Shown one piece after another: positions 28,174 to 44,899 of a DNA stretch of 64,000 nt. Made by a program: the position numbers and the translations under genes. The stretch is from a virus. Taxonomy: Duplodnaviria > Heunggongvirae > Uroviricota > Caudoviricetes. Location: the IMG/VR virus record IMGVR_UViG_3300031555_010707. One strand, given 5' to 3'. The notes under the pieces are model-generated. The model searched no databases. It was not told where the DNA came from and saw nothing but the letters and a program-made list of their open reading frames with translations. The stretch's first letter is position 1, and every line of letters starts with the position of its first letter.

Positions 28174-28264
28174 TGGCGGAGAGAGTGGGATTCGAACCCA
28201 CGGACGGCGCGGAGCCGTCGGCGGTTTTCAAGACCGCTGCCTTAAGCCGCTCGGCCATCTCTCC
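28174..28264 (-). tRNA. tRNA-Ser(TGA), type II, CCA encoded
   Basis: Cloverleaf folded by hand; anticodon loop CTTGAAA. Confidence 0.75.
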
Positions 28265-28272
28265 ATTACGGG

Positions 28273-28479: not shown

Positions 28480-28490
28480 ACTGCGTCTCC

Positions 28491-29046: not shown

Positions 29047-29273
29047 CGTACTCCTCCTTGATGATTTCTTGTCCTCTGCATCCTCTTTCGAGTCAAGCGG
29101 CTTGGAACGCTTCTTGCTGCATTACAAGCGGCAGACAGCCCAGTCCTACTATCTGCCGGATGTCCAGCTGTACTGGTTGGAGGGAACGCGATACTCCTGG
29201 CAAGCGCGAGCCTGTCTCCATCAAGCTCGTAAATGCGCTTTCATGCCCTGTCAATAACCAAGTGTATCGCAGC

Positions 29274-29352
29274 AGTGGTCTTCCTGGCGGGACTCGAACC
29301 CGCGACTCCTTGATTAAAAGTCAAGTGCTCTACCAACTGAGCTACAGGAAGG
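29274..29352 (-). tRNA. tRNA-Lys(TTT)
   Basis: Anticodon loop CTTTTAA; CCA encoded. Confidence 0.75.
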
Positions 29353-29355
29353 TAA

Positions 29356-29430
29356 TGGCGGCTCGTCAGGGATTCGAACCCCGAACCTATCGGTTAACAG
29401 CCGAGTGCTCTACCTTTGAGCTAACGAGCC
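29356..29430 (-). tRNA. tRNA-Asn(GTT)
   Basis: Anticodon loop CTGTTAA; CCA encoded. Confidence 0.75.
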
Positions 29431-29468
29431 ATGATGCCACCGCCATTGTCGTAGAGGTGGCAAACAGA

Positions 29469-29660
29469 TTAGAATAACCGCTTTCCGCAAGTCGGGCAGC
29501 GGTAGATGGTGAAATTTCCGATCTTATAATCGGTTCCATTGGTTTTGCAGTTGATCGGAAGATATTCGTTATCCCATTTCAGGCGATGGATTTCTCTTCC
29601 GTTCTTATCGACTTCGGCAACATATGGAACATAGCCTTTCGGATTGCATACACTGCACAT
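29469..29660 (-). CDS. Small zinc-ribbon protein
   Basis: CxxC...CxxC. Confidence 0.3.
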   Translation of the reverse strand: MCSVCNPKGYVPYVAEVDKNGREIHRLKWDNEYLPINCKTNGTDYKIGNFTIYRCPTCGKRLF

Positions 29661-29663
29661 AAA

Positions 29664-29951
29664 TCACGCACCTTCTTCCAGAAGATCGTCTTCAGTCATT
29701 TCATCCATGTCGCTTCTCATCGCCTGAAGTTTTCTCTGATCCGAAATCTTGTTGCTGGACATAGAATTCGGGCTACCTCCCCATGACTTGCGGGGATTGC
29801 ACATACAGCAGGAGCAGTGAATCTTGTTCTTGGAATATTGATGAAGATTGTCATACCAGTCTCCACCCATAATGTTCCTGACGATGGAACGCTTGCGTTT
29901 TGCATGTTTCCAATCCATCTTTCTGGAACGACCTCTGTTATTCGGCTTCAT
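29664..29951 (-). CDS. Hypothetical basic Cys-containing small protein
   Basis: AAGGAG 7 nt upstream of ATG 29951. Confidence 0.3.
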   Translation of the reverse strand: MKPNNRGRSRKMDWKHAKRKRSIVRNIMGGDWYDNLHQYSKNKIHCSCCMCNPRKSWGGSPNSMSSNKISDQRKLQAMRSDMDEMTEDDLLEEGA

Positions 29952-29973
29952 GCTATCACTCCTTGCTAAAGAA

Positions 29974-30066
29974 TGGCGGAAGGTGTGAGATTCGAACTCA
30001 CGGTGCCCGAATTTCAGGCACGCCTGATTAGCAATCAGGTGCATTAAGCCACTCTGCCAACCTTCC
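29974..30066 (-). tRNA. tRNA-Ser(GCT), type II
   Basis: Anticodon loop TTGCTAA; long variable arm. Confidence 0.75.
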
Positions 30067-30069
30067 AGA

Positions 30070-30144
30070 TGGAGCTCCCATTCGGATTTGAACCGAAAAC
30101 CAATCGCTTACGATGCGATTGCTCTGCCGTTGAGCTATAGGAGC
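30070..30144 (-). tRNA. tRNA-Thr(CGT)
   Basis: Anticodon loop ATCGTAA. Confidence 0.7.
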
Positions 30145-30411
30145 ACTTGTGTCTACAATTTCAATCGAACTTCCGATTTCTTCTCCAGCGCCTGCACCAA
30201 CAGAAATCGCAATCCAGATACCCGACACGATGCCCGTCGATTTTGCACACCGAAGAACCATGCGCCACATGTTCTCGATTGCCACAACTTCCGCAGCAGC
30301 GCCCTTCTCTTACGTCGTCTGAAGCGTATACTTTCAGGCCGTTGTTGCTATTGCGAGTATCATAAGAAAGACATATGAGCAACGAGAACACCTCCTAAAA
30401 TGATTGATGAA

Positions 30412-30488
30412 ATGGAGCCGGATATGGGACTCGAACCCATGACCCTGCGCTTACAAAACGCACGCTCTGGCCATCTGAGCTAATCCGG
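30412..30488 (-). tRNA. tRNA-Thr(TGT)
   Basis: Anticodon loop TTTGTAA. Confidence 0.7.
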
Positions 30489-30577
30489 CATGTGTGGTGG
30501 CCTCTGCTGGTAACGATCCAGCCTCCGTAGATTTTCAGTCTACTGCTTTCACCATGTAAGCTAAAAGGCCAAGTAAA

Positions 30578-30654
30578 TGGTGCCGAGGGTGGGACTTGAA
30601 CCCACAAATCGCAGATTTTGAGGCTGCTTCCTATGCCATTTCGGATACCCCGGC
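30578..30654 (-). tRNA. tRNA of uncertain identity: type I structure, canonical register gives anticodon CAA, discriminator A73
   Basis: Acceptor, D and T arms are good. The anticodon stem GCAGC/TCTGC has a loop-proximal C-U mismatch; loop CTCAAAA. Confidence 0.55.
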
Positions 30655-30817
30655 TTGTGTGTTTCCCGCTTAGATTGAACATTGTATCCTTTGGGTCACG
30701 GCTACTCAGATCAAGCCGAACATTTGCAACTGTCCAGTTCCAATGCTTTTCAGCGGACATTTTCATTCTCTGTGAGGAATCCACAACGCTCACATCAGCA
30801 GGGAGCGACCCTGCATT

Positions 30818-30900
30818 TGGTATGGATGAAGGGATTCGAACCCTTACGCTTACGCACTGGGACTTAAAACCAGCGTGCCTGCCAATTACACCACATCCAC
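30818..30900 (-). tRNA. tRNA-Leu(TAA), type II
   Basis: Leu-like D arm and long variable arm. Loop TTTAAGT. G1-U72 first pair. Confidence 0.6.
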
Positions 30901-31176
30901 TTAGTCTATTTTGTTGCGCCATTCATCATAGCTGGGAGGAGACATACCCTCATACTCATCGCTGTTATGGTCAATTGCCCATTGTACGAGGAACAAAAGA
31001 TACCGCTCCCAACGCACGTCATAATCGTCCAGCAATGCACAATTGGTCAACCTCATGCCACTTTGTTCGAGCCATCCGAATTCATGCTCAAGCATTTCTA
31101 TCGGAGGAAGCTCGGCTGTTGGCTCCTCTTGATAATTGATAATTGCAACGAAGGTTCTTTCATCCACCGCTATCAA
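30901..31176 (-). CDS. Hypothetical small protein
   Basis: ORF. Confidence 0.3.
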   Translation of the reverse strand: MIAVDERTFVAIINYQEEPTAELPPIEMLEHEFGWLEQSGMRLTNCALLDDYDVRWERYLLFLVQWAIDHNSDEYEGMSPPSYDEWRNKID

Positions 31177-31243
31177 CCTTTCCTATGGAAAGGCACCCCG
31201 CCACAATGAACGGGGTGCCAAGAGAATATGTGTTTATGTACAA

Positions 31244-32737
31244 TTAGTGCTTGTCGGCAATAGCTCCACCAAGCATACCGGACAGCAGAGCCATCAGATC
31301 CAGACCGGTTGCATCCTTGAAGCCGTCTTGCACCTGCTTCATACCGGTCGTAACCGTGCCGGTCAGATTGGAGGTGCCGCCCTCGTAGATGGTCATGTTG
31401 TCGATGCTTTCCATGGGCTTCGCAATTGCCGCTGCAATGTCCGGCATGGTCTTGACGTATTCCAACGCGACGTCCAGAACCATCTGCTGCTTCGCGGCAT
31501 CGTCGTATTCCTTCATGGCTTCCGCCTTCTTCAGAATACCAACAGCTTCAGCCTCCGCTTTAGCCTGGATGGCTTCGGCTTCAGCGCGACCCTTTGCGGC
31601 AACGCCTGCCGCCTCGTTCTCCATAGCAATACGCTCTGCTTCGGAACGCGCCTTTTCGGCGGCGGCTCTTTGTTCAGCTTCGAACAGCTCAGCGTCTGCC
31701 TTCTTCTGTCGCTGGAAAAGCTCAGCCTCTGATGCCTTCTGAAGTTCGTACAGACGAGCGTCGGCTCTCTGCTGAGCAGCATACTTGTCTGCTTCAGCCT
31801 TCTTCTTGATCTCGGCATCCAGAGCGCGTTCACGGATGGCGACTTCACGTTCCTTCAGCTCAATCTCCTTTTCCAGACGAGCCAAGTTAGCCTCGGCAGT
31901 CTTAGTTTCGATAGAAGCACGCTGTTCCTGCTCCTGAATGGAATAAGCAGCATCGGCTTCTGCTCGCTTGGCATCCTCGATCTTTTTCAGTTCGGCTCTC
32001 TGGATTGCCAATTCGTTCTTGCGCTTAGCAATCTCTTGCTCAGACTTGACCTGAGCTTCGTTGGCAGCCATAGCGGCCTGCGCTCTGGCAATGGCAATTT
32101 CCTTTTCGGCCTGAGCCTTGGAAACAGCCGCATCCTTGGAAATCTGAACCGTGTTTTCCAGACCCAGATTATCAATGACGCCGTTGCGATCCTTGAAGTT
32201 CTGGATGTTGAAGGTGGTCAGCTCCAAGCCCATATCACGCAGATTGGGCGTTACGTTCTCAATGATGCGTTCAGCGAAAGTCTTCTTGTCGCCCTGAATG
32301 AGTTCTTTCAGAGTGGTCTGAGAAATAATTTCGCGGATGTTGCCTTCGAGAACGGGAGTGATGATTTCCTTGATTTGCTCGGGCTTATAGCCAAGGAACT
32401 TGGATGCTGCAATCTTCAGCAGTTCGGGTTCTTTGGAAATCGCCACGTTGGCCACCGCATCAACCATAATATTGATTGCGTCCTTGGTGGGAATCTCATC
32501 GCGGGAAGTAAAGTCGGACTGAATGTTTTCGAGCGACATGTAGTCAACTCGCTGGATAATGGGGATGACAAGAGCGCCCTGACCAATGATGGTTCTCGAA
32601 CCACGCGGGCCGGTGATGACCATTGCAATGTTCGGGGGAGCCTTCTTGTACATAACCTTGCCGATGAAGACAACCAAGAGGACTGCGGCGATGAAACAAC
32701 CAACAAAAACAGCGGCAGACATGATAGATTCGAGCAT
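31244..32737 (-). CDS. SPFH/band-7 flotillin-like membrane protein
   Basis: N-terminal TM, an SPFH core (NIAMVITGPRGSR...), and a long EA-rich coiled coil. Confidence 0.6.
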   Translation of the reverse strand: MLESIMSAAVFVGCFIAAVLLVVFIGKVMYKKAPPNIAMVITGPRGSRTIIGQGALVIPIIQRVDYMSLENIQSDFTSRDEIPTKDAINIMVDAVANVAISKEPELLKIAASKFLGYKPEQIKEIITPVLEGNIREIISQTTLKELIQGDKKTFAERIIENVTPNLRDMGLELTTFNIQNFKDRNGVIDNLGLENTVQISKDAAVSKAQAEKEIAIARAQAAMAANEAQVKSEQEIAKRKNELAIQRAELKKIEDAKRAEADAAYSIQEQEQRASIETKTAEANLARLEKEIELKEREVAIRERALDAEIKKKAEADKYAAQQRADARLYELQKASEAELFQRQKKADAELFEAEQRAAAEKARSEAERIAMENEAAGVAAKGRAEAEAIQAKAEAEAVGILKKAEAMKEYDDAAKQQMVLDVALEYVKTMPDIAAAIAKPMESIDNMTIYEGGTSNLTGTVTTGMKQVQDGFKDATGLDLMALLSGMLGGAIADKH

Positions 32738-32940
32738 TCTGATTCTCCTTTGGTTCTATTTAAGTTCCCGCTGATACCAGCTCCGAGGATCACCCATCGC
32801 CCTGATAAGACTAATGCGAAAACCTTGAATCGGAGATTTGATATAGCTTTAACCCTTGACCCTTAACGCTTGAGCTTTATTGCGTATAAACTTTAATGCC
32901 TAAGCCTTACACTTTGAGCTTTATGCTTTGAGCTTTGAGA

Positions 32941-32967
32941 CAAAAAACAAGCGCTCCTGGCTTGTTT
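32941..32967 (-). terminator. Rho-independent terminator downstream of 33111..33758
   Basis: On the minus strand, stem ACAAGC / GCTTGT followed by TTTTTT. Confidence 0.45.
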
Positions 32968-33110
32968 CTCTATGCTTTGCATAGCATCTTCATATTATAT
33001 CGCAACCCAAATGCGTTTCCCTGTTTACATTTATTTGGCATTCGTCCAAACAGGGGAAAGTGTCGAATGAGCCTATCGTTTAGGGTTTTCAGTAACAGCG
33101 GAATCTTATT

Positions 33111-33758
33111 TTACTTGGTATCGTAGCTGACAGTGATGGTAGTCAGCGCATTGCTTACGCTCAGCGCAGCATCAATTTCAGCATCGAAAGCATCGATCTG
33201 CTCACTGAGCTGTTCGACCTTGGCTTTGATGTCAAGGGGATCGACCATATCCAGAGAGTTCATTTCGATGTATGCTTCACGGGTCTTAATGGCTTCGTCA
33301 CTCTTTGCCTTTTCACTGTTGGCAAACAGGCCGGAAACATAGGCGTCTGCCTTAGCCTGAAGCTCATCTCCGTTGGTGCGCTTGAAGTCCAGCGTTGCGG
33401 CAGCGAACTGCACTGTCATCTGCTTGACAAGCAGACGCAGGTTTTCCATGCCGGTCTTCTTCATCTCAATGGCTTCTGCAACCGTATAGGACTTGCCGCC
33501 AATGGTCACTTTGGTCTGGGCATTGGAGATGGACAGCGCATTACGGATCGCCGCTCTGCGATTGATACGAGCAATGATGCTTTCATAATCGCTCTTCATG
33601 CCATCCTTGTAGTCACCGACAGGCTTGCCGGCAATCTTATCATTAGAATGCTTGTTCGTGGTAATAAAAGTCGTGCCACGAATCTGATTCTGGATTCGAT
33701 CATCCAGAATCTTGAGGGTGCTGAGAGCCTGATGGACAGTCATGGTTTCCGTAGTCAT
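33111..33758 (-). CDS. Hypothetical protein
   Basis: ORF. Confidence 0.35.
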   Translation of the reverse strand: MTTETMTVHQALSTLKILDDRIQNQIRGTTFITTNKHSNDKIAGKPVGDYKDGMKSDYESIIARINRRAAIRNALSISNAQTKVTIGGKSYTVAEAIEMKKTGMENLRLLVKQMTVQFAAATLDFKRTNGDELQAKADAYVSGLFANSEKAKSDEAIKTREAYIEMNSLDMVDPLDIKAKVEQLSEQIDAFDAEIDAALSVSNALTTITVSYDTK

Positions 33759-33786
33759 GTAAATACCCCTTCCTTTTCTTCTGAGT

Positions 33787-33861
33787 TGGCTGTGGCGGTT
33801 GGGTTCGAACCAACGAATGCGGGAGTCAAAGTCCCGTGCCTTACCGCTTGGCTACGCCACA
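33787..33861 (-). tRNA. tRNA-Gln(TTG)
   Basis: U1-A72; loop CTTTGAC. Confidence 0.75.
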
Positions 33862-33864
33862 ATG

Positions 33865-33939
33865 TGGTGGAGGATAAGGGGCTCGAACCCTCAACCTTCC
33901 GCTTGCAAAGCGGATGCTCTACCTTTGAGCTAATCCCCC
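33865..33939 (-). tRNA. tRNA-Ala(TGC)
   Basis: G3-U70 present; loop TTTGCAA. Confidence 0.75.
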
Positions 33940-34220
33940 AGGTTGCACAGCGACCAATCTTCATCTCCAATGTCATGCTGAATTAAGGTGGACATGGAAC
34001 AAGCGTCCTTGCGTGAGCTCCCACAGGCCAAGTGCCATATCTCTCAATGTTCTATTAGCCCTTAATCCCTCTGCGTAATTCGTCTTATGAGTGCATTCCA
34101 TCAGTTAGAAAAACCGATCCTGCGCATGGCGGCTTCTATTCAGTTTTGAAAGGACGTATAAAGCCGCAACGGTAGTCCGTTTTCGCAGCTACGGATGTCT
34201 AATTTGTGCTGCGTCAGCGT

Positions 34221-34294
34221 TGCGCCCGAAGGGAATCGAACCCTTGACCACGCAGTTTCCCCTGCGTGACTCTACCAACTGAGTTACGAGGCGC
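34221..34294 (-). pseudogene. Aberrant tRNA-like gene: good T arm, extra 5' nucleotide, a 6-bp anticodon stem with a 6-nt loop GGGAAA, no encoded CCA
   Basis: T arm AAGGGTTCGATTCCCTT; anticodon arm ACGCAG GGGAAA CTGCGT. Confidence 0.4.
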
Positions 34295-34481
34295 ATAGAA
34301 ACCTCTGATACTTTTTCATCGCTTGTTTTCACAACCCTGAATCAATTAACAGGAAACGGTTTAATGTTATCAGAGGCGAGACGACCTAAGCCTTTTTGCC
34401 GTTAGAAAGCATTATCTTGTCGCCTGGAGGGGCGGATTTTCTCATGCTCCGCCATACAAGGAACCCTGAATCTAACTGGGT

Positions 34482-34558
34482 TGGCAGGGGAAGAAGGATT
34501 TGAACCCTCATCTACATCTGATTTGGAATCAGGAGTTTTTCCGTTAAACTATTCCCCT
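34482..34558 (-). tRNA. tRNA-Trp(CCA)
   Basis: Loop TTCCAAA. Confidence 0.7.
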
Positions 34559-34616
34559 TCGTAAGCGACTGCCGAAACAACCGCTACTTTTGATAGACTT
34601 ACGCCTTTATGATGGC

Positions 34617-34693
34617 TGGCGCACCAAGAGGGACTCGAACCCCCGACACATGGCTTAGAAGGCCAATGCTCTATCCATCTGAGCTACTGGTGC
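34617..34693 (-). tRNA. tRNA-Arg(TCT)
   Basis: Loop CTTCTAA. Confidence 0.7.
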
Positions 34694-34698
34694 AGAAG

Positions 34699-34772
34699 TG
34701 GAGCACCGTGCGGGAATCGAACCCGCGACACATACTTGGAAGGAACGTGTTTTGCCACTAAACTAACGGTGC
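34699..34772 (-). tRNA. tRNA-Gly(TCC), weak anticodon stem
   Basis: Loop CTTCCAA; its 5' end overlaps the HEG stop by 10 nt. Confidence 0.55.
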
Positions 34773-35560
34773 GCAGTTATGATGTCAACCACAGGAATTC
34801 TAAGTTTCCTGCACCATTTTTTAACTGAGTTGCCCGTTACGTTATATTTGCGACCAACTGCGCACAGGCTCTTCAGCTGTAAAATATCTTTAATTAGATC
34901 GTCTCTGGTAGGAATACATCCATTTTTCATTTGTGCAATATGAGAACACTTTATGGAACAATACTTCTGACCTTTGGAGCGACTTTGAAATACTGAAGAA
35001 CACACTCCGCATACTCTTTTACCGCACTGGATATTGCTATCGATTGGCCTCAGTTTGTCTTTACTGACCAACTTTCTATATACGGATTGAGTTCTTATCG
35101 GGTATTCAATGTCATCCATCACCCAGCTATCGCCTCGATTGATCGAACGTACCATACTACCTGAAATGCCAACAATATCGCCAATCTCATCCGTAGAATA
35201 CGAAGTAGTTTTCAGCATATCGACTATTTTGCTGTATAGCTCATTCGTCATAATATTACTGTGGCCATCTTGTCCTCCCGGAGTCGAATTGTAACCATTC
35301 GGAACCATGCTGTTGTAATACGAAATCCAGTATCTTTCCTTTTCATTGAGTTCGGACGTTAAACAGCTTTCTACCACCTCAAACGAGAAATTTTCTATCC
35401 CGTATTTTGCAAAGGCCTTATATAGTGGAAGATGCAGCAATCTTTCTTCATGCGCCGACTTATGATTATTCCATCTTTTTGATATACACCTGGATTGTCC
35501 TATGTATATCTTACCGTTAATCCGATTTTGAATCTTATAGATCCCAATTTCTTTCGCCAT
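34763..35560 (-). CDS. GIY-YIG homing endonuclease with C-terminal DNA-binding Cys motifs
   Basis: GIYKIQNRINGKIYIGQS is the GIY-YIG motif. Confidence 0.7.
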   Translation of the reverse strand: MAKEIGIYKIQNRINGKIYIGQSRCISKRWNNHKSAHEERLLHLPLYKAFAKYGIENFSFEVVESCLTSELNEKERYWISYYNSMVPNGYNSTPGGQDGHSNIMTNELYSKIVDMLKTTSYSTDEIGDIVGISGSMVRSINRGDSWVMDDIEYPIRTQSVYRKLVSKDKLRPIDSNIQCGKRVCGVCSSVFQSRSKGQKYCSIKCSHIAQMKNGCIPTRDDLIKDILQLKSLCAVGRKYNVTGNSVKKWCRKLRIPVVDIITAHR

Positions 35561-35591
35561 TTCGTTATCCTACTCATAATGAATTGCTATT

Positions 35592-35668
35592 TGGTCTGGC
35601 TGACAGGATTTGAACCTGCGACCTCGTGATCCCAAATCACGCCATCTACCAAACTGATATACAGCCAG
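35592..35668 (-). tRNA. tRNA-Pro(TGG)
   Basis: Loop TTTGGGA. Confidence 0.7.
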
Positions 35669-35674
35669 ATACTG

Positions 35675-35759
35675 TGGTGGGCGGAGGTGGATTTGAACCA
35701 CCGCATCCAGAGGAGCCTGATTTACAGTCAGGTGCCTTTGACCGCTCGGCCATCCGCCC
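35675..35759 (-). tRNA. tRNA-Tyr(GTA), type II
   Basis: Loop CTGTAAA. Confidence 0.75.
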
Positions 35760-36458: not shown

Positions 36459-36857
36459 CTATTCAACCTCAGTCCAACCGTTTCGCTGAATGATGCGTCG
36501 CATGTTTCCCGCACCGACTGGGTTCATACTGTGAATCCTGATGGGATAGTTACGACCAGTTTCTTCGAGCCAGTCAAGGAGCTTGATATAATCTCCCCCA
36601 TTTACGGCAAAAGTGCCCGCATCATGATCTATGTCAATAACTTCGATTTTAAGAAGGTTCTTCAATAATGATAGAGCGTTTGCTCTGTGGAGAGGCGCTT
36701 CCGCGAACATTTCTTTGTGTGCATAAATACCACATTTCGCATATTGAGTTTCTAACTCAATTATTGCTGCCTTTGCAACATTCACGCTTCTGATCCACAA
36801 ATACCCATCTGGAGCAGGACGAGTATCGTCAATCCATAGCTTCATCGGCCATCGCAA
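36459..36857 (-). CDS. Hypothetical protein, possibly receiver-like / CPR-like
   Basis: LWIDDTRPAPDG...IDIDHD pattern; start codon uncertain (TTG). Confidence 0.3.
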   Translation of the reverse strand: MRWPMKLWIDDTRPAPDGYLWIRSVNVAKAAIIELETQYAKCGIYAHKEMFAEAPLHRANALSLLKNLLKIEVIDIDHDAGTFAVNGGDYIKLLDWLEETGRNYPIRIHSMNPVGAGNMRRIIQRNGWTEVE

Positions 36858-37083: not shown

Positions 37084-37743
37084 TTAAGTCGCCGCTTCCT
37101 CCTCGGAGCTCTGATTTTTAGATTGGATACGGAAGCCGAAACACACGCCATGCGTGCCGCTCGCGCCGCTGCTGCCGCTGCCGCCACCCGAATGGACAAG
37201 GCCGAAGTTCGCCGTGGAGCCGGTACCCGGAGAACGAAGCCAATAATAACAGTAATCGTTATTATCCACGCCGTATCCCTTTACCCGATTCCGGCGGAGC
37301 TTGTAGATGTCCAGCTGAGTATCTTCAGGCTCCATGTCTTTGATGCGCTGGTTCTTACCGAACATCTGCGTGTAGGACAAGCAAAAGAGCTTGTCTTCGC
37401 ATTCAATGCGTTCACCATTGATACACTGGACAATAGTAGTAGGAATAATGACCGCCTGCAGATCGTCGGGAAGGAGCTCGAAAACCTCCTGGGCATACTT
37501 GCGCATCTTGCAATCACGCCAACCGCCGCGATTGGTATCGCGGTCGTTCATATTGTGAGGTTCTTTCAGACAATCACGGAAAACAATGAACTGTTCTCCC
37601 TTTTCATCATGGGCAACTTCGAGATCGACTCGCTCATCATTCTTGAGCGTAATCGAAATGACGTCTCCGCTCGCAAGAGAATCGAACTCTACGATGTCCG
37701 CCCAAGACACCGTTCTTCCAATCTTGGAAATGACAGAAACCAT
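37084..37743 (-). CDS. Hypothetical protein with a Gly/Ser-rich C-terminus
   Basis: ORF. Confidence 0.4.
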   Translation of the reverse strand: MVSVISKIGRTVSWADIVEFDSLASGDVISITLKNDERVDLEVAHDEKGEQFIVFRDCLKEPHNMNDRDTNRGGWRDCKMRKYAQEVFELLPDDLQAVIIPTTIVQCINGERIECEDKLFCLSYTQMFGKNQRIKDMEPEDTQLDIYKLRRNRVKGYGVDNNDYCYYWLRSPGTGSTANFGLVHSGGGSGSSGASGTHGVCFGFRIQSKNQSSEEEAAT

Positions 37744-38016: not shown

Positions 38017-38296
38017 TGAATATCTCTCCTTTATCTGTATGATGGAAATGCGCATATTTCCATCTTTCTTGTATATTAGCAAAAGTGACAGGGGTGCCAA
38101 ACAGATGGAAAAATCGCGCTTTTCAGGCATGGTCAGAATCAAACAGTTGGATTTTTCGCATCAGAAGGACGGTCATCAGGTTGTTCGATATACTCAAGGT
38201 AATCTTGTTCAGATGCAAAGAGGATCATGTTATCCTGAACTCTTCCCATATATCCATGCTGCGTGAAGTATCCGTAAGGCATGATTGCACCTCCGA

Positions 38297-38320
38297 TTTA
38301 GAACCAACTCGGTTCTAAAA
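38297..38320. promoter_or_regulatory. Palindromic operator-like site TTTAGAACC-N6-GGTTCTAAA
   Basis: Perfect 9-bp inverted half-sites; a second copy lies at 54389..54413. Confidence 0.5.
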
Positions 38321-38487
38321 TTGAGTTCTGACACCTCGAAAAGCCTTGAAATACGGGACTTTTCAAGATTTGCCCCGTAAGGAAAAATGGTCACATTTCT
38401 TGTTCCTTTAGTAGACCATAGAAAGCCGAAGTTACGAGCTTCTTATAAGATCGTTTATCCAGCTTTCTTATGGCCAGAAGGAGGAAA

Positions 38488-39630
38488 TCACGGGTCGCCA
38501 CGAAGGTCTGCTCGAATCATTCGGACAAGATTCACCTCGTACTTCTTGTTCAGATGATCGATGACGTAGGTGATGTAGTCCTTCTCGACCATCTTGTAAT
38601 ACGACTTGAGTCCATTTAGTGCGCAGACATCGTGCAGATCCCATTTGATTCCGCGTTTTCTGTCCTGAATGTAATTGGTACACATTGCTTTGAAACGTTT
38701 CTTGGCCTGATACCCTACGGTAATCTGGTTATTCCTGTTCAGCATCAATCCAAGATTCCAGTTACGACCGGAGCTGGAACCGTACCTCGTCTTAGCAGAC
38801 TTGATCTTGAACGGAGCATTGAATCGTGCAAGGGTCGCATCGATTTCCTTCACCATTCCCAAAGGGTCAAATTCGTATCTGCTGGAAATCTGAATATCGT
38901 CTGCGAAACGGGTATAAATAAAGCCCTTCTTGCGAAGAGCGTTGAAAAGGGCATGGTCGATGGGGATCATCATCAGGTTTGTCAGCATTGGAGAAATCGG
39001 AGTGCCTTGCGGAAGACCTCCATTCAGGAAACATAAGTCCATCGCTTTGCTGAGCACCTGCTTTCCCTTTTCGTCCTTCATGATTTCGCTGAAAGGAAAG
39101 ATGATGTCCATCATTCCGAGGATAAACTCGATGGTCGTACTTCCGAAGAAATCGGAGAAGTCTGTCTTTTCGAACCACTTGCTTTCATTCGCCTGATGTT
39201 TCTTCATTGCATCAAGTGTATTGCGATGCTTCACATAGGCAAAAGCGGACGTGTGATACAACGCAAACATCTTATCTTCGAAGATGGACTTGAGTTCCCT
39301 CAGTGCTTCCATCAAAGGTTCATGCGGTGCATTGATCCAGCGAAGGCCGCCAGACTTCTTGGGAATTGGAAAGGTTTCGTAAAGAGAAGCACGCTTTGCG
39401 CCATACAGAGCTTCGTGCTTCTTTACAAACTCCTCTAAGACACGAATCATCGAAGGAATATCCGACCGGCGAACGACATCCTCATTGACTGTTTCATAGA
39501 ACCTGGTGACTGTGGCTGAAACATCCTTTGACTCGGGTGAAATGTTATCGACGTTGACTTCACCCTTCAGGATTTCCTCCAGTGTTATCTGATGGGTTCT
39601 GGGAGTTTGCATTATAGTAATGTAAGGCAA
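38488..39630 (-). CDS. Retron-type reverse transcriptase
   Basis: Collinear with Ec86 RT: HRNTLDAMKKHQANESKWFEKTDFSDFF, GLPQGTPISPMLTNL, YTRFADDIQI and AKTRYGSSSGRNWNLGLML match. TTG start with AAGGAGG 8 nt upstream. Confidence 0.75.
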   Translation of the reverse strand: MPYITIMQTPRTHQITLEEILKGEVNVDNISPESKDVSATVTRFYETVNEDVVRRSDIPSMIRVLEEFVKKHEALYGAKRASLYETFPIPKKSGGLRWINAPHEPLMEALRELKSIFEDKMFALYHTSAFAYVKHRNTLDAMKKHQANESKWFEKTDFSDFFGSTTIEFILGMMDIIFPFSEIMKDEKGKQVLSKAMDLCFLNGGLPQGTPISPMLTNLMMIPIDHALFNALRKKGFIYTRFADDIQISSRYEFDPLGMVKEIDATLARFNAPFKIKSAKTRYGSSSGRNWNLGLMLNRNNQITVGYQAKKRFKAMCTNYIQDRKRGIKWDLHDVCALNGLKSYYKMVEKDYITYVIDHLNKKYEVNLVRMIRADLRGDP

Positions 39631-39965
39631 TGCAAATACCTCCTTTACTCTTCATGATCTGCAATCTAACATATGTGGTGTGCCTGCTGCGCCAGCTGCT
39701 GAGGAGGTGTCTTCCAGGGACTGGGGAGCTTGGGAACTCTGATGCAGGGCGTGCAGGTCTGGGGAGGTCAGGGTTTTGACGTGTCGAGGCGTTCGTTTGC
39801 CTGTGAGATCTTGGTTCTGAGATTGTGCGATGAGCCTCGGGACGTTGTGTGGCGTGAGTGTTCGAGCTGGAGTCGAGCCCTGAAGGCGCCATGGCCACTG
39901 GGAGGCAGGCCTCCGTCGTCCTGACCTTTTGTTACGCCGGATTACACCTCGACGCATTCAATCAA
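39631..39965 (-). ncRNA. Candidate retron ncRNA (msr/msd-like) or structured 5' leader of the RT gene
   Basis: About 330 nt, GC-rich and noncoding, directly upstream of the RT. A TGTATAAT -10 box lies at its upstream end. A candidate a1/a2 pair, gaggtgt ... acacctc, flanks it. Confidence 0.3.
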
Positions 39966-39986
39966 GAGATTGAATTATACATTGCA
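39915..39986. repeat. Conserved leader element, copy B
   Basis: See copy A at 28081..28160. Confidence 0.6.
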
Positions 39987-39996
39987 GATTTAGGTT

Positions 39997-40749
39997 TTAC
40001 TTCAAGAGCTGATGAAGTTCATCAGTAATCTCTTTTACCACTTCTTCAGGCGGAAGAACATAATAGTATCCGTCCAGCGGACTGAATTCAACGGAACACT
40101 CGCCATCGAGACGCAGGAAAGGAACGATGTTGCACTCTGAGGCAGGACAGTGATTAGCGAACCTTCCGCGACGATCTACGGCGCAGAGTCCAGTATTCAC
40201 CGCAGTTCTGAACAGAAGGTTTACAGGTGTAACAGCACCGCGAACGAAAAGAGCCAGCTGTTCGCCCTCGGTCAGATCTTCGCCACCATACAGCTGACTT
40301 CTGGACAGCATACTGACTTTGAGCGTTGTCTTGACCTGTTCCCCATACTTCCGCTTAAATCCGACGGGCACAGAAGTAACGATTTCATGGGGCGTAATCA
40401 TCTTGCGCTCCCATGCTTCGAACAAACTCAGGAAACCGGGGCGATTCTTCAGAGTGTTATCAGCCACATCCGTTTCGTGCTGAGGCTTGAACCAGTCATT
40501 TTCACTGGCATTCAGGAACTGGCAGATATTCGTCTGAGGGAAGAAGTTACTTCCGCGTTCACGGCGGTCACGGCTTTCATTCTCAGGCTCCTGGGCATCA
40601 GCGCAGAACTTTCCAATGCCATCATTCACATAGAAATCGTTCTGCTCAGATGCTTTTCTCCAAAGGAGGTTGATGGGTGTCCGCTCGCCGCTTCGGAGAA
40701 ACTGACCAAAGACCAGATATTCTCCAACGGGAATTTCGGAAATCTTCAT
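39997..40749 (-). CDS. Hypothetical protein
   Basis: 250-aa ORF. Confidence 0.4.
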   Translation of the reverse strand: MKISEIPVGEYLVFGQFLRSGERTPINLLWRKASEQNDFYVNDGIGKFCADAQEPENESRDRRERGSNFFPQTNICQFLNASENDWFKPQHETDVADNTLKNRPGFLSLFEAWERKMITPHEIVTSVPVGFKRKYGEQVKTTLKVSMLSRSQLYGGEDLTEGEQLALFVRGAVTPVNLLFRTAVNTGLCAVDRRGRFANHCPASECNIVPFLRLDGECSVEFSPLDGYYYVLPPEEVVKEITDELHQLLK

Positions 40750-40760: not shown

Positions 40761-41432
40761 TTAAAAAGCGTCGATTGCGTAGCTAAACGCATCGGCCAGG
40801 ATCAGCTTGCGAAGCGGGCCGCCCTTTGCAAAGTTGATAAAGTTGGACACACCCGCCGCTACGATCATTCGAACCGTAGGCGCAACAGACAGGGTGATAT
40901 TGCAGGCGGAAACCGGAGTCTCCTTCTTGGCTTCCTCGTGGGAGAATGCCATAGACTTCAGGAAGGCGTCCACCATTTTTTCATCATTCCATGCGGCAGC
41001 GTAGTGCTGAGCATCGGTCAGACGCATACGGAAATCGAACATGCCTTTGATGAAAGGATTGCCAACGCAAGCCTTGGCGATGTCGCGGCGGAGGTCGATA
41101 TTATCCACACAGAGGAATACATAGCCAGAAAGGCGCTGGTTGGTATAGCCCTTATGTACCAGAACGAGGTCATCCTTCATTTCCGGATTGATCTTGAGCA
41201 GATATTCTGCGACTGCATCAACCTTCATCTTACCAATGTCATCCTGCGTGAACATCTGATTGGCGATATTGTGAGCTTCGACCTTATCGAAGTCGTAAAG
41301 AGTGATCTTCGTCAGGCCAAAGCGAGCCAGGTTTTCAGCGACCGTGGAGCCGATAGCTCCACAGCCGATAATATGAATGCGCTCACGGCACATTTCGGGT
41401 TTGAAGAATTCATAAGACTTGGAAAGATCCAT
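40761..41432 (-). CDS. ThiF/MoeB-family E1-like adenylyltransferase
   Basis: RIHIIGCGAIGSTVAENLARFGLTKITLYDFDKVEAHNIANQ Rossmann fold. GGGAGG 7 nt upstream of ATG 41432. Confidence 0.65.
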   Translation of the reverse strand: MDLSKSYEFFKPEMCRERIHIIGCGAIGSTVAENLARFGLTKITLYDFDKVEAHNIANQMFTQDDIGKMKVDAVAEYLLKINPEMKDDLVLVHKGYTNQRLSGYVFLCVDNIDLRRDIAKACVGNPFIKGMFDFRMRLTDAQHYAAAWNDEKMVDAFLKSMAFSHEEAKKETPVSACNITLSVAPTVRMIVAAGVSNFINFAKGGPLRKLILADAFSYAIDAF

Positions 41433-41445
41433 GACTAAACCTCCC

Positions 41446-41727
41446 TTAGTTTTCTTCGTTGATGATGATACCACCTTGGATGATAACGCGCTTGCCGTTG
41501 ATGTCGAAATATACTTCATCGGTGCTATCGCTAACATCAAACTTGCCCGACCATGATTTAATCATGTCTCCGTCGTAGCTATAGACAGAAACGGTACGAT
41601 TGAGGCCGCCGCCCCAGTTGCTTTCATACGACTTGACAGTGCGCTTCCATCCTTCCGTGCAACCGGTAAGGCAAAAGAGCATCACGATCAGGACGGCAAC
41701 GAGAATGATCTTTTTCATGTGACTCAT
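41446..41727 (-). CDS. Small lipoprotein
   Basis: Signal peptide MKKIILVAVLIVMLFCLTGC with a lipobox. Confidence 0.45.
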   Translation of the reverse strand: MSHMKKIILVAVLIVMLFCLTGCTEGWKRTVKSYESNWGGGLNRTVSVYSYDGDMIKSWSGKFDVSDSTDEVYFDINGKRVIIQGGIIINEEN

Positions 41728-41737
41728 TCCCCTTTTC

Positions 41738-42724
41738 TTAAGTGTCAAATCGATGGTCGCCGAAAATTTCCTTATCCCAGTCTACGGAAGCATTGTTGCC
41801 GCCAAAGTATCCGGGATAGCCCGCCATGCTCATCTGGCTGGGTTCGGCACTGGCCTTTTCGGGATTCTTCGGAGGACGCCCCTTCTTACCCTTGGGCTTC
41901 TCTTCCCCTTTTTCCTTACCCTTGGGCGTGACATTGCCTTTCACGGGCTCGATCTTGGCAGGCTGCTTCACAGGCTCGTCATCATCCATATAGGCCAAAC
42001 GGCTTCCGCCGTAGTTGCCGCCGTAATTACCACCGTAGCTTCCGCCATAGTTTCCTCCATATGCACTGCCCGGAGTATAGGTCTTGCGAGTGACCACATG
42101 GTCGGATTCGGCAATGAAAGATTCGACATCGAATTCATCATTGGCAATGCTGACAACGATGTCCTTATCCTCGTACATGACATTGTTGGCGTAATCGTAA
42201 ATCTTGATGGTGTGATCCAGACGCTTGTTCCAGATCATGAAAATGTAGTAGTCATCATCCTTGAGCTGGGCAAGAATCTGCTGCTGGTGGTTGGTGTCAA
42301 CACCGGAAGGAGAAGTTCCCATGTTGACGTGGGAATGACCCTGCATACGCATGGCGTTATAGTAATCGTCATCCAGAGTCATCATCCACTTCTGATACTC
42401 TTCCTGGTCAGTGTTGACCGTAGAACCGGTGACGGTCTGAGGATAGACCACCACATCGGTAATGATGAAGGTATCTTCGTCTTCGCGCTTAACGGTGCCA
42501 TGCCATGCGACCTCGGAATCGAAATGCTTCAGGAGAGTCAGCATCTTGACATAGGCCATCGGCGTGAAAACCACATATGCCTTCGTATCATCCTCACCGG
42601 TGTAATCAAAGCTCTTGGTAAAGGTAATCTTGCCATCGGACATCTTCGCATCCGTGACATTCTTGCGGAACTCCTCGACCATATTGTCGATATATTCCTT
42701 GGTCAGAAAAATCGGCTTAGACAT
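41738..42724 (-). CDS. JAB/MPN (JAMM) metalloprotease-domain protein with a low-complexity GGNYGG-repeat and Lys-rich C-terminus
   Basis: HSHVNMGTSPSGVD is HxHx7Sx2D. AGGAGG 6 nt upstream of ATG 42724. Confidence 0.6.
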   Translation of the reverse strand: MSKPIFLTKEYIDNMVEEFRKNVTDAKMSDGKITFTKSFDYTGEDDTKAYVVFTPMAYVKMLTLLKHFDSEVAWHGTVKREDEDTFIITDVVVYPQTVTGSTVNTDQEEYQKWMMTLDDDYYNAMRMQGHSHVNMGTSPSGVDTNHQQQILAQLKDDDYYIFMIWNKRLDHTIKIYDYANNVMYEDKDIVVSIANDEFDVESFIAESDHVVTRKTYTPGSAYGGNYGGSYGGNYGGNYGGSRLAYMDDDEPVKQPAKIEPVKGNVTPKGKEKGEEKPKGKKGRPPKNPEKASAEPSQMSMAGYPGYFGGNNASVDWDKEIFGDHRFDT

Positions 42725-44180
42725 TTTCTTCCTCCTTCTTGGCATCCAAGCTGTTGAGATATTCGAGAGCTTCGACAGGAGTCACGTCTCGACCATCGGG
42801 CAGTCGGATGATGCGGTGGGTACTGGTAAATACATCGTTCAGGAAATAGCGGACAGTGTGAGCTTCGGCAAAATTCAAGCTCTTTGCGGAAGCCATGCAC
42901 TGCTCGATGGCACCTATGAGATTTCCGTCCCGGATCATCCTGTTGATGTACGATCTGTAATTACCCAAGCAGGCAAAATGCTGGATATGCGGATTCGGGA
43001 TATAATCGATGAACTCGTCTCCATACTCGTAGAAACGATGGGCCGATGCTTCTCCGCGCAGATCGATAATGTAGTTCGCGCACATCTTAACCTTCAGGAT
43101 GGGTTCGTCCGAGAAAATGGCATCCAGCATCTTGCGTCGAACCGCAATATCCTCAAACTGAGGAAGGTAATCGTACCCGGTGTACAAGCAAGAACCGGTT
43201 TTGCGAATGTAGGTATTGTATTGTTCGGGGTCGAATATTTCGAAGAAGGTTTTGACAGTAAACTCCATCTGACGCCCCCGCACACGAACGGGCATCAGGT
43301 TTCGGTTGCAGACAAAATAGTCGATCAGTTCAGATTCATCAGATGCAGCTTCGATTGCCATTTCCTGGCCGGCCAGACGGATGTTCAAGTCATCGAGCAT
43401 GGTCAGATATTCATGATACCTTCTATTCAGATTATCAATCTGATTCTGGTAATCAGTGATCTGATCTTTAGTGCGCTGCATTTCTTCACGGCGACCGATC
43501 TTATCAAAATCGCCGATAACGTTCTTAATCATGTGCTCACGGAAATCGATTCGATCCGCCAGCAGGGAGAGAATACGCTCATACTCAGTAGCATTACGGA
43601 ATGTAAGCGCATCAAGCAGGGAACCTTCCACTTCATCAAGCGGAATATCGGAGAAAAACCAGGGAAAAAGACGAGGAGTCAGGGACTGGAGGAGATGGAA
43701 GTTACAGAGCGTCAGGCCTTCGCACACAATGAAAGTTTCCTTGTCCTGCTCATTGATGTAAAAGCGGGCATTGAGCTTTCCACGATTCTGTACAAAAACC
43801 TGAAGGTCTTTTGCTTCATGGTAATTAGGGAATACCTTGGTAAAGCCGGATTCAGTGTTATCGTACAGGCTCAGGATGGCGGCATTGTCATTGGACGGGC
43901 CTACAAGATAACGAATCGAGAGGGTGTTGGCACCAAAGGGCACCGGAGAGATGCGCGTAAAAACGCCTGCGAGATTGGTAAAGGTATGCGAACCATATCC
44001 ATAGGAATCGAAACTGCGAATAGACAGGTTTATGTCCGCACCGTTGGAGCGTCTATGAAGCAGGGCTCTCAGCGTTGCCAGAAAAGACCTGTCGTCATTA
44101 AAGTAATCGCCGTGAATCTTAAAGAATTCATTGGCGATACCCCGTACCAACGGAGTCTCTCTGATCTTCTTATTAAACAT
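42717..44180 (-). CDS. Hypothetical protein
   Basis: 487-aa ORF. Confidence 0.45.
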   Translation of the reverse strand: MFNKKIRETPLVRGIANEFFKIHGDYFNDDRSFLATLRALLHRRSNGADINLSIRSFDSYGYGSHTFTNLAGVFTRISPVPFGANTLSIRYLVGPSNDNAAILSLYDNTESGFTKVFPNYHEAKDLQVFVQNRGKLNARFYINEQDKETFIVCEGLTLCNFHLLQSLTPRLFPWFFSDIPLDEVEGSLLDALTFRNATEYERILSLLADRIDFREHMIKNVIGDFDKIGRREEMQRTKDQITDYQNQIDNLNRRYHEYLTMLDDLNIRLAGQEMAIEAASDESELIDYFVCNRNLMPVRVRGRQMEFTVKTFFEIFDPEQYNTYIRKTGSCLYTGYDYLPQFEDIAVRRKMLDAIFSDEPILKVKMCANYIIDLRGEASAHRFYEYGDEFIDYIPNPHIQHFACLGNYRSYINRMIRDGNLIGAIEQCMASAKSLNFAEAHTVRYFLNDVFTSTHRIIRLPDGRDVTPVEALEYLNSLDAKKEEENV

Positions 44181-44278
44181 ATTGCACCCACCTTAATGTA
44201 GCGACTCCCTCCCGACACATCGCCGAGAGGGAGTCTAAATCTATTTGGGGATATGAAGGAAACCCGGAGAGGGAAGGA

Positions 44279-44899
44279 TTACATCACAGTGATGGTGTCG
44301 CTGATGGCCTTCTTCTCTTCCTTGACTTCGGTCAGAGCAGCTTCGAACTGCTTCTCAACCTTGTTCAGGTTCAGAACGGCGACGCCGATATGCTCTTCCG
44401 CCCACTTCTTCGCATCCTCGGTGCCATCGGGGATCATCATGGTGATGGTCGCCTTGCCGTCCTTGGAAGACTGCGGGCCGAAAGCAGCGCCGTAGGCGTT
44501 GATGGAACCGGTGCCCTTCGCGGTAGTACCGATGCGGAAAACCTCCTCCTTCTTGCCGGCTTCACCTTCGAACAGGCTCAGGGTCTTGGGACGATACTTT
44601 TCCAGAGTCTTGATGTCGGCCAGGGAATGAGCAGACTCGATGACACAGGCAGAACCCGCAATCTTGATGTAGGCGGCGTTGTCAGCCTTGACGACGTTCA
44701 ACAGGTAGCACTTCTCGGTGATACCGAAATCAGCGAAGGTCTTGTCCAGATCGCCGGCGCCCAGAGTGGAGCCATCCAGAGAGGTCATGCCGACGGTGTA
44801 GTCGATATTGTTGTTCTCCAGGGCGGTACGCAGGGTGGTGTTTTCGTCGATGATAACAGACTGGCGGGACAGATTGTTGCCGATAGTAACCTTAATCAT
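44279..44899 (-). CDS. Hypothetical protein; the N-terminal 75 aa look beta-grasp-like
   Basis: AAGGAGA upstream; MIKVTIGNN... Confidence 0.4.
   Translation of the reverse strand: MIKVTIGNNLSRQSVIIDENTTLRTALENNNIDYTVGMTSLDGSTLGAGDLDKTFADFGITEKCYLLNVVKADNAAYIKIAGSACVIESAHSLADIKTLEKYRPKTLSLFEGEAGKKEEVFRIGTTAKGTGSINAYGAAFGPQSSKDGKATITMMIPDGTEDAKKWAEEHIGVAVLNLNKVEKQFEAALTEVKEEKKAISDTITVM

Follow-up and report, generated by a model that had tools for sequence, protein, structure and literature searches.

A reverse transcriptase (RT) gene at positions 38488..39630 of the minus strand of a 64,000-nucleotide stretch of Caudoviricetes DNA (IMG/VR record IMGVR_UViG_3300031555_010707; the whole of this stretch is termed the window) is accompanied by two noncoding RNA (ncRNA) genes on the same strand. 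Element A (39657..39989) lies directly upstream of the RT gene, and element B (27835..28163) lies ~11.5 kb from element A and the RT gene, downstream of the latter. The RT belongs to the retron clade. The two RNAs have the same order of parts, which is a private terminal stem, a conserved G, a handle (hairpins P1 and P2, then GTAACAAnnGG), a cargo of ~240 nt, and a second G before the 3' arm of the stem, and the stem and hairpins covary among relatives. One RT is accompanied by one to eight such elements in ~140 related phage and metagenome-assembled genome (MAG) loci, and the handle is specific to the genome that carries it. These results suggest that the system is, on balance, probably a phage-borne, effector-less, multi-template variant of retrons, which is carried by SPbeta-like, probably temperate phages of gut Clostridia. 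By analogy with retrons, synthesis of complementary DNA (cDNA) would be primed at the conserved G and would extend into the cargo.

Lineage of the reverse transcriptase

The RT gene starts with TTG and encodes a protein of 380 residues. Its ribosome-binding site AAGGAGG (39639..39645) follows the 3' arm of element A and precedes the start codon. The protein matches Pfam RVT_1 with an E-value of 1.8e-16, and relatives of 55-82% identity show no change in its catalytic and finger/palm residues, indicating that the open reading frame (ORF) encodes a genuine RT, as was proposed in the first-pass annotation of this DNA. Three of the motifs listed in that annotation are present: YTRFADD, which is the catalytic motif (Y239-T-R-F-A-D244-D245), QGxxxSP (QGTPISP) and the DFF box (DFSDFF). 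The protein has an N-terminal extension of ~75 residues, which is specific to the family, and its N-terminal sequence MPYIT is invariant in relatives.

The same annotation placed the RT among retron RTs. Profile hidden Markov models, PDB sequence neighbours and the predicted fold all support this placement, as opposed to one among the RTs of group II introns, Abi systems, defence-associated reverse transcriptases (DRTs) or diversity-generating retroelements (DGRs). Among the PADLOC models, retron RT_II-A gives the best match (1.1e-42, 144.5 bits), followed by I-A (2.5e-36), XII and III-A. The best NCBIfam model is retron_St85_RT with 158 bits (cut-off 235), and the Ec67 retron model gives 107 bits (cut-off 450). 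The scores of Drt2 (41 bits, cut-off 390), Drt3a (28 bits, cut-off 200) and AbiA are all far weaker than that of St85. The group II intron maturase model TIGR04416 gives 65 bits against a cut-off of 300 and Rfam detects no intron RNA, so that a group II intron reading is rejected. The nearest PDB sequences are the retron RTs Ec83 (6.5e-20), Ec67, Ec78, Ec86 and Kva2, with alignments that extend through the thumb. When the AlphaFold2 model of the RT (pLDDT 84.8) is compared with the PDB by Foldseek, the top 12 matches are all retron RTs, with TM values, normalised to the target, of 0.67-0.74. These are followed by group II (7.7e-12), DRT9 (6e-11), DGR (1.5e-8) and DRT2 (1.8e-8) structures, the DGR RT 8ub7 being ranked 36th and the DRT2 structure 38th. 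The SQ signature typical of DGR RTs is absent, in agreement with the first-pass annotation, and QGTPISP is present instead.

Retron RTs are defined by two motifs, NAXXH and VTG (PMC7736814). NAXXH aligns to AMKKH (residues 141-145) of the RT, in which H145 is invariant in the family and the N and A are not kept. Thus, the NAxxH-like segment described in the first-pass annotation is retained with respect to its histidine, and not with respect to its asparagine and alanine. VTG of Ec83 aligns to N292-L293-G294, of which L293 and G294 are invariant in the family, and therefore ITVG, which was proposed as the counterpart of VTG of Ec86, is not the corresponding segment.

The RT cannot be assigned to any of the Mestre types I-XIII or to the NCBIfam St85, Ec67 or TIR families. 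All curated cut-offs are missed, in accordance with the earlier suggestion of a new retron type. Identity is at least 36% inside the family and then falls to 30% or less to classical retron RTs. As judged from its sequence and predicted fold, the RT is a member of the retron clade, yet it belongs to a separate clade outside the described types. Of the candidates scored, 4,828 proteins belong to this family at E<=1e-20; many of them are encoded on contigs of 100-300 kb, and none is named by the source databases. Among GTDB genomes, it is confined to gut MAGs, mostly binned to Clostridia.

Structure of the RNA gene upstream of the RT gene

The RT gene is separated from an upstream ORF of 250 codons by a gap of 366 nt, which contains no credible ORF. 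The GC content of this gap is 0.52-0.60, as compared with ~0.44-0.48 around it, and its coding strand is strongly C/A-rich. The GC-rich noncoding stretch reported earlier at this site is therefore real. It contains element A, a retron-like ncRNA gene of 333 nt (39657..39989, minus strand), which is detected by R1, a covariance model of the handle, with 61.9 bits (E 1.3e-13). Element A is likely co-transcribed with the upstream gene, because it begins 7 nt after the stop codon of that gene.

The 5' arm of the closing stem, ATCTGCAAT (39981..39989), pairs perfectly with the 3' arm, ATTGCAGAT (39657..39665), to form an a1/a2-like stem of 9 bp, with 26 nt left between the 3' arm and the RT start. 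The 5' arm is directly followed by a conserved G (39980), a candidate branching guanosine for priming from its 2'-OH group. Hairpin P1 (39956..39975) varies in sequence among elements and covaries. Hairpin P2 (39934..39955) has lower and upper stems of 5 and 3 bp, separated by a bulge, and a loop of 3 nt; its apical part, GAGGTGTAATCC, is genome-specific. The handle is followed by the cargo (39667..39919), which is ~250 nt long and C/A-rich and is the presumed template for cDNA, with a further GC-rich hairpin often present at the cargo start among elements. A second G (39666), termed the opposing G, directly precedes the 3' arm and does not vary in alignment A3. Thus, element A resembles a retron ncRNA in that it is contiguous with the RT gene, upstream of it and on the same strand, and in that it has a perfect terminal stem and two msr-like hairpins. 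By their positions, the two G residues are putative counterparts of the branching and opposing guanosines of retrons.

The first-pass annotation interpreted the leader somewhat differently. The strings on which it relied exist, namely TGTATAAT at 39981..39974, cgaggtgt at 39951..39944 and acacctcc at 39710..39703. TGTATAAT was taken as a promoter box, but it has no -35 partner, and it contains G39980, the conserved G after the 5' arm. The strings cgaggtgt and acacctcc were taken as the a1/a2 pair, but cgaggtgt represents the 5' strand and loop of the covarying hairpin P2, and element B keeps cgaggtgt without an acacctc partner. The layout of promoter, msr/msd and RT that was called classic is likewise not found, because there is no long msd hairpin and there are several ncRNAs per RT. 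In contrast, covariation and a stem search, as described below, support the idea of a structured leader RNA that is conserved, pairs at its termini and has a G where the branch is expected. Rfam reports only tRNAs at its gathering thresholds and noise at E up to 10, and no Rfam family matches element A at either level.

When the gaps upstream of the RT genes of 13 viral loci are compared, the arms are complementary inside each locus and different between loci. An unbiased search for the best long-range stem was made in the 460 nt upstream of the RT gene of 84 dereplicated loci, with shuffled sequences as controls. A stem of one common geometry is recovered from 62 of the 84 loci and from 10 of the 84 shuffles; it spans 230-380 nt, and its 3' arm stops 5-45 nt short of the start codon. 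The 5' arm is followed by G in 57 of the 62 stem-bearing loci, and never in the shuffled controls.

Covariation was analyzed with a compact alignment of 36 sequences and an explicit structure consisting of the closing stem, P1 and P2. In this alignment, 88.8% of the cells are paired, as compared with 36-46% when the partners are slid, and compensatory changes are observed in 21 of the 22 pairs. For the closing stem, 99.3% of the cells are paired and all eight pairs covary, with 20 distinct arm sequences. P1 shows double-sided changes at all six pairs. P2, which was not used for the selection of the sequences, is paired in 90.9% of the cells, and seven of its eight pairs show compensatory changes. 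In alignment A4, no sequence departs from G at the position after the 5' arm. Minimum free energy (MFE) folding of the window sequences yields each of the helices, namely the closing stem, P1 and P2, de novo.

Multiple elements per RT

Element B is a second complete ncRNA gene, of 329 nt and without an adjacent RT gene, which is detected by R1 with 52.5 bits (E 3e-11). Its arms are CTTCGCAAT and ATTGCGAAG, its conserved G is located at 28154, and its P2 apex is identical to that of element A; its cargo is unrelated. The 39-nt handle motif occurs twice in the window, where no occurrence is expected. Apart from elements A and B, R1 detects in the window only a weak remnant in tandem after element B (27738..27781, minus strand; 15.6 bits, E 0.1). 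This remnant, which contains P1 and P2 only, is a possible degenerate third handle, and a search for a 3' arm that matches it is negative. A gap of 10 nt separates element B from the gene for tRNA-Ser(UGA) (28174..28264, minus strand; identified by ARAGORN and Rfam), with which an array of 17 tRNA genes ends. The two are probably co-transcribed, and tRNA processing would free the 5' end of element B. The relative position of element B is unchanged in L183 and L185, two loci whose RTs are 97% identical to that of the window.

The arrangement of several elements around one RT gene is a property of the whole group. R1 gives 206 matches in 88 viral loci and 96 matches in independent MAG contigs, and every one of them is on the RT strand. 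No R1 match is found in classical retron loci. A typical viral locus has one element upstream of the RT gene and one to seven downstream of it. Statistics were obtained for 134 elements from 54 loci, within 6 kb on either side of the RT gene. The 5' arm is followed by G in 130 of these elements, and a perfect private 3' arm (8/8) is present in 100 of the 134, as compared with 20 of the 134 when the arms are shuffled. The opposing G is present in 109 of 127 elements, and the TAG or CAG that precedes it is conserved. The median element length is 296 nt. The number of copies per locus is 1-8, with two or more in 46 of the 54 loci, and 45 elements adjoin the RT gene on its upstream side. Some elements follow one another in tight tandem at spacings of 5-31 nt, and others flank the RT gene or abut tRNA genes, several of those in relatives touching the tRNA genes directly. 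Thus, a cassette with one ncRNA per RT, as in retrons, is not what is found: there are two ncRNAs in the window and one to eight in relatives, and the MAG set is alike. One RT appears to serve several separate template RNA genes.

The elements of one genome have a common P2 apex and differ in their arms, lower stems and cargos. P2 identity amounts to 0.83 for elements of one locus, as compared with 0.52 for elements of different loci. This is what is predicted if one co-evolving protein recognizes all elements of a genome. It bears on the possibility that the elements are phage small RNAs independent of the RT, such as regulators, sponges or processing signals associated with tRNAs, so that their linkage to the RT would be synteny only and the RT would use another template or none. 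The elements do lie in tRNA zones, up to 11.5 kb from the RT gene in the window, their cargos are unstructured and A/C-rich like some protein-sponge RNAs, and one lineage supplies all loci. However, their anatomy is specifically retron-like, with the two conserved G residues beside the arms of a terminal stem. One element is located directly upstream of the RT gene, and a distance of 10-35 nt separates its 3' arm from the start codon. The handle is never found on the opposite strand or in the loci of other retrons, each genome has its own version of the P2 apex, in line with recognition by a protein that co-evolves with it, and the catalytic residues of the RT are invariant. RNAs that have nothing to do with the RT are therefore an unlikely explanation.

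The copy number may also suggest a selfish family that resembles short interspersed nuclear elements, in which non-autonomous units are copied and reinserted by the RT without benefit to the phage. The variation from one to eight copies among relatives, the occurrence of some copies in tight tandem or abutting tRNA genes, and the degenerate remnant beside element B agree with such a family. In contrast, the copies of one genome have no similarity in their cargos and are thus not recent duplicates. All copies are on the RT strand, near the RT gene or the tRNA zone, and the position of element B is conserved in relatives. No target-site duplications or integrase-like activity were identified in a search that was not exhaustive. 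We regard a selfish family of this kind as quite improbable, and the elements as probable templates of a retron variant.

Properties of the cargo

The cargos are ~200-250 nt long and contain A, C, G and T at.30,.28,.22 and.20 respectively, with only.16 G in the middle of the cargo. The background of the same strand contains.21 C and.25 T. The MFE of the cargo core has a mean z of -0.65 relative to dinucleotide shuffles, and the pairing probability in the middle of the cargo is equal to that of the shuffles. A canonical long msd stem-loop, with a stem of 10-50 bp, is absent from the cargos as judged by MFE, helix and pairing tests. A long-range helix around the cargo, suggested by enriched strings such as GGCGCCT, CTTCAGG and GAAGAC, was considered and rejected, because cognate and non-cognate combinations give -33.6 and -33.3 kcal/mol respectively, and because of the shuffled controls.

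The cargos are unique even among the elements of one locus. BLAST detects no similarity of the cargos elsewhere in the window or the loci, outside orthologous elements, and no cargo matches any of 50,697 phage records. The possibility that the cargos target or derive from other DNA is rejected on the basis of these two results. Close relatives have an invariant handle and an invariant stretch of the last ~60 nt, and the middle of the cargo changes at a nearly unconstrained rate. The changes are mostly transitions without adenine bias, and they include insertions and deletions without conservation of a reading frame. The cargo diverges faster than the RT in close relatives. Hypermutation of the cargo was considered; the overall divergence is compatible with near-neutral evolution. 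The loci L027 and L031 have identical RT genes (1134/1134 nt), identical handles, and flanks that are 98-99% identical; their cargo 1 (L027:5632-5975) is 84% identical, with 47 changes that are mostly transitions. This difference may result from allele exchange by recombination within conserved ends, or from diversification specific to the cargo.

The sense strand of the cargo is free of stop codons in 34 of 100 elements, as compared with 20 of 100 composition-matched shuffles, and the antisense frames are no more open than those of shuffles. A coding function is therefore not convincing. A -35-like string, TTGTCAAG, occurs in 10 of 94 cargos, and it was rejected as a promoter part because it has no consistent -10 partner. 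These results bear on a DRT2-like synthesis of a gene, in which the cDNA, possibly concatenated, would be made double-stranded and encode a new protein. The terminal stem, which brings the ends of the template together, and the excess of open sense frames are in its favour. It is opposed by the lineage of the RT, which is outside the UG/DRT2 lineage according to both its Drt2 score (41 against 390 bits) and the rank of the DRT2 structure (38th by fold), by the antisense frames, by the near-neutral rate, the insertions and deletions and the lack of frame conservation of the cargo, and by the failure to find a consistent promoter-like junction. Gene synthesis of this kind is extremely unlikely, and the cargo is better viewed as the putative template of the retron variant proposed above.

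Genes adjacent to the RT gene

The first-pass annotation named three candidates for a retron effector, which are the 250-residue protein encoded upstream at 39997..40749, an HPr-like protein and a 219-residue protein. None of them proves to be conserved beside the RT gene. Among the 88 viral loci, an HPr-like protein is encoded beside the RT gene in two, a cREC protein is encoded there in one, and homologues of the 219-residue protein are encoded elsewhere. The cREC_REC protein of the window, a small cyclic-phosphate-processing receiver (36459..36857, minus strand; 1.9e-15), is not conserved beside the RT gene. PADLOC detects no defence effector among the RT neighbours. An associated effector gene or fused domain, which is usual for retrons, is thus not found, the downstream genes being not conserved.

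This result bears on the reading of the locus as a canonical defence retron, with one msr/msd leader under its own promoter, an RT and an adjacent effector, which would act by superinfection exclusion or abortive infection. The position of the RT in the retron clade, the terminal pairing and conserved G of the ncRNA, and the presence of an integrase in the phage, which makes a prophage-encoded defence system plausible, are consistent with it. However, the proposed effectors are not conserved, PADLOC finds no substitute for them, the loci contain several ncRNAs per RT and no msd hairpin, there is no promoter at TGTATAAT, and the 219-residue candidate is a variable protein of the DGR type. We consider a canonical defence retron unlikely, and a retron variant that lacks an effector remains our preferred reading.

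Variable region of the 219-residue protein

The proteins on both sides of the RT match DUF6273. The 219-residue DUF6273 protein is encoded at 37084..37743 on the minus strand, 750 nt downstream of the RT gene, and it has a DGR-type variable region (VR) at ~37151..37227. When compared with relatives whose RTs are 97% identical, this protein is identical in its first 172 residues and differs at ~12 of the next 27. There are 27 variable sites in the 77 nt of the VR, all at codon positions 1 and 2, among residues that can be encoded by NNC or NNT.

A template for this VR was searched for with mismatches at template A left free. It is found neither in the cargos, nor in either strand of the window, nor in 21 kb of a relative, nor in a 10-kb extension. 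A BLAST comparison of the 64-kb window with itself gives no pair of a template repeat (TR) and a VR, and the window contains no second RT. No A-biased repeat pair is present in ~170 loci. The exact pattern of the VR template has no match in viral contigs and only two chance matches in a metagenome search, and a search for DUF6273 relatives in viral contigs finds none.

It may be supposed from the VR that the RT and its ncRNAs constitute a DGR, in which the cargo is the TR and the RT mutagenizes the variable C-termini of DUF6273 proteins. The VR is a genuine one of the DGR type and is encoded 750 nt from the RT gene, the cargo is A/C-rich, as many TRs are, and there is no other RT in the window. 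However, neither the cargos, the window, L183 nor the locus L188 contains a sequence that resembles the VR, even with template-A mismatches free, and the search for A-biased repeat pairs in ~170 loci is negative. No cargo matches a sequence outside the elements. TRs are conserved, but the cargo itself differs from one relative to another, and the differences are mainly transitions that show no adenine bias. The RT is in the retron clade, and the DGR RT is ranked only 36th by fold (E 1.5e-8). Homologues of the DUF6273 proteins have no positional linkage to the RT in relatives. A DGR formed by this RT is thus very unlikely. The VR appears to belong to a separate DGR, whose template and RT would be located in the ~73 kb of the genome beyond the sequence examined.

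Phage genome and other neighbouring genes

The phage origin of the window, as stated in the first-pass annotation, is confirmed by an SPbeta-like gene set, which includes a YonO-type RNA polymerase (PF05183), homologues of YonB, YonD, YonG and YonV, an integrase, HU, a holin and an endolysin. SPbeta-like genes are located at 60042..63659 of the plus strand of the window, with a tyrosine integrase gene at 62592..63659, and in L188. A contig of 147.6 kb with SPbeta-like genes is 100% identical to the window across their overlap. These results suggest that the phage is temperate, has a genome of ~147 kb and uses its own RNA polymerase. The window contains a perfect tandem repeat at 51262..51471, with a period of 77 nt and ~2.7 copies, and the 147.6-kb JGI contig ends inside this repeat, near position 51349 of the window. 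The repeat may mark an assembly break or a genome terminus.

A block of genes located upstream of the RT gene and co-oriented with it (40761..44899, minus strand) is conserved above the RT gene in 76-82 of the 88 loci. It encodes a ThiF/E1-like protein (40761..41540; ThiF 4.2e-27), a JAB/RPN11-like protein with a JAMM motif, HSHVNMGTSPSGVD (41738..42745; RPN11 1.9e-4), p487, a protein of 487 residues (42717..44180), and p206, a protein of 206 residues with a possibly beta-grasp-like N-terminus (44279..44899), all on the minus strand. The block, which comprises the only conserved neighbours of the RT gene, is of the ubiquitin-like-conjugation type, and ThiF and JAB genes are not known as retron effectors. 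Its linkage to the RT gene may be functional or may represent inherited synteny, as all loci are derived from one phage lineage.

The array of 17 tRNA genes that ends at element B extends over 28174..35759, all on the minus strand. The tRNA gene at 34219..34295 has an unusual anticodon loop and is not assigned by ARAGORN. An ORF located between tRNA genes (34763..35560) has a GIY-YIG-like N-terminus, as judged by eye. Three genes are located downstream of element B on the minus strand, namely an isochorismatase/PncA-like gene directly downstream (26938..27567), a PRPS-like gene (26113..26922) and an NAMPT-like gene (24606..26099). The NAMPT-like and PRPS-like pair corresponds to the phage NARP1 pathway (Namat and Adps), a counter-defence pathway that reconstitutes NAD+. 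PncA and Prs homologues are encoded ~6 kb downstream of the RT gene in 20-23 of the 88 related loci.

The noncoding region 38065..38404 below the RT gene contains a diverged repeat that recurs at 54306..54413 and 59516..59599, both intergenic and on the opposite strand, with 74-75% identity over 84-110 nt. The repeat includes the inverted repeat AGAACC-N-GGTTCT and is possibly a promoter, operator or terminator element of the phage. Relatives have further ncRNA elements at the position of this region, where the window has no handle match.

Proposed mechanism and its weighing

According to the retron variant model, the elements would be transcribed jointly with upstream genes or tRNAs and then processed. 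In each genome, the RT would recognize all elements by their P2 apex, and the terminal stem would set the 2'-OH group of the conserved G beside the end of the template. The RT would then copy the cargo from 3' to 5', towards the handle. The products would be several different branched, RNA-linked single-stranded DNAs (ssDNAs), which are G/T-rich and up to ~240 nt long. Our best guess, made with low confidence, is that these ssDNAs play a role in conflict between phage and host or between phages, for example as decoys or sensors. A role in conflict is favoured because the elements have tRNA arrays and a NARP1-like operon as neighbours, and because there is no abortive-infection effector.

Several points weigh against the proposed retron variant. 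The signature motifs of retron RTs are only half kept, with AMKKH in place of NAXXH and NLG in place of VTG, so that only H and G are retained, and the RT scores below the cut-off of every curated family. The long msd stem-loop, which is a defining feature of a retron ncRNA, is absent. The synthesis of cDNA is predicted from the likeness to retrons, and the role in conflict is suggested by the neighbourhood only. In addition, all loci represent one phage lineage, and the linkage between the RT and the elements could reflect shared ancestry instead of function. A linkage by shared ancestry only is argued against, because P2 is genome-specific.

Comparison with known systems and implications

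Retrons (types I-XIII of Mestre et al. 2020, including Ec86/Eco1, Ec78/Eco7, Ec83 and Ec67/Eco2) resemble the phage system most closely. Their RTs are the closest in sequence and fold along the full length of the protein, thumb included. They too have an ncRNA upstream of the RT gene on the same strand, with paired terminal repeats, a G after the 5' arm, an opposing G and two msr-like hairpins, and their ribosome-binding site and RT start come after the 3' arm. The phage system differs from them in that it has several ncRNA genes per RT, two in the window and up to eight in relatives, some of which are kilobases away. Its cargo of ~240 nt is weakly structured and A/C-rich, instead of forming a long msd hairpin. 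To our knowledge, this cargo is longer than any known msd. The phage system also has no known retron effector, its RT motifs are reduced to H and G, its RT has an extension of ~75 residues, and it is located on SPbeta-like phages of Clostridia and not in bacterial defence islands.

Engineered retron arrays termed multitrons (bioRxiv 10.1101/2023.07.17.549397, PMC10370050) similarly combine one RT with several ncRNAs that have a common recognition structure and different cargos, but they are synthetic constructs for multiplexed genome editing. No natural array of retron-type ncRNAs and no description of this phage family was found in the searchable literature, with the caveat that a 2026 preprint (10.64898/2026.09.22.753630), which we have not read, mentions ncRNA arrays in a DRT-centred context. 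We tentatively propose that this RT family, which is so far undescribed in that literature, is abundant among the large SPbeta-like phages of gut Clostridia.

DGRs resemble the phage system in that a phage-borne RT is combined with an adjacent, A-rich noncoding template RNA, and a variable protein of the DGR type is encoded 750 nt away in the window. Synthesis of cDNA by DGRs is self-primed from RNA, as is proposed for the phage system. The phage system differs from DGRs in that it has no TR/VR relationship, an RT outside the DGR clade, no identified Avd, and a cargo whose own variation shows no adenine bias. Features common to the phage system and to DRT2, DRT9 and other UG-type defence RTs are an RT and a structured upstream ncRNA that provides the template. 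The UG-type systems are, however, of another RT lineage, and they are bacterial defence loci with a single ncRNA.

Retrons are understood as a tripartite bacterial defence system made up of a single ncRNA, a single RT and a single effector. They also serve as a major tool of genome engineering, which is limited by short templates constrained by a hairpin and by one donor per RT. If the proposed arrangement of one RT, many hairpin-free templates with cargos of ~240 nt, and no effector is correct, both of these pictures would change. The phage system may then be a natural multiplexed retron, in which one RT, through a genome-specific handle, turns a fast-evolving library of two to eight unrelated cargo RNAs, encoded in the phage genome, into long unstructured ssDNAs during infection. 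In contrast to all characterized retrons, it would need no toxic effector, and the ssDNAs might act as decoys or guides in conflicts of phages with hosts or with other phages. We hold this as a possibility of less than even probability. A system of this kind would provide a natural scaffold for the multiplexed production of long ssDNA, with a P2-apex handle that can be swapped. It would raise the question of what use a phage makes of several abundant, fast-evolving ssDNAs, and it would give retron-type reverse transcription a role on the virus side of the conflict.

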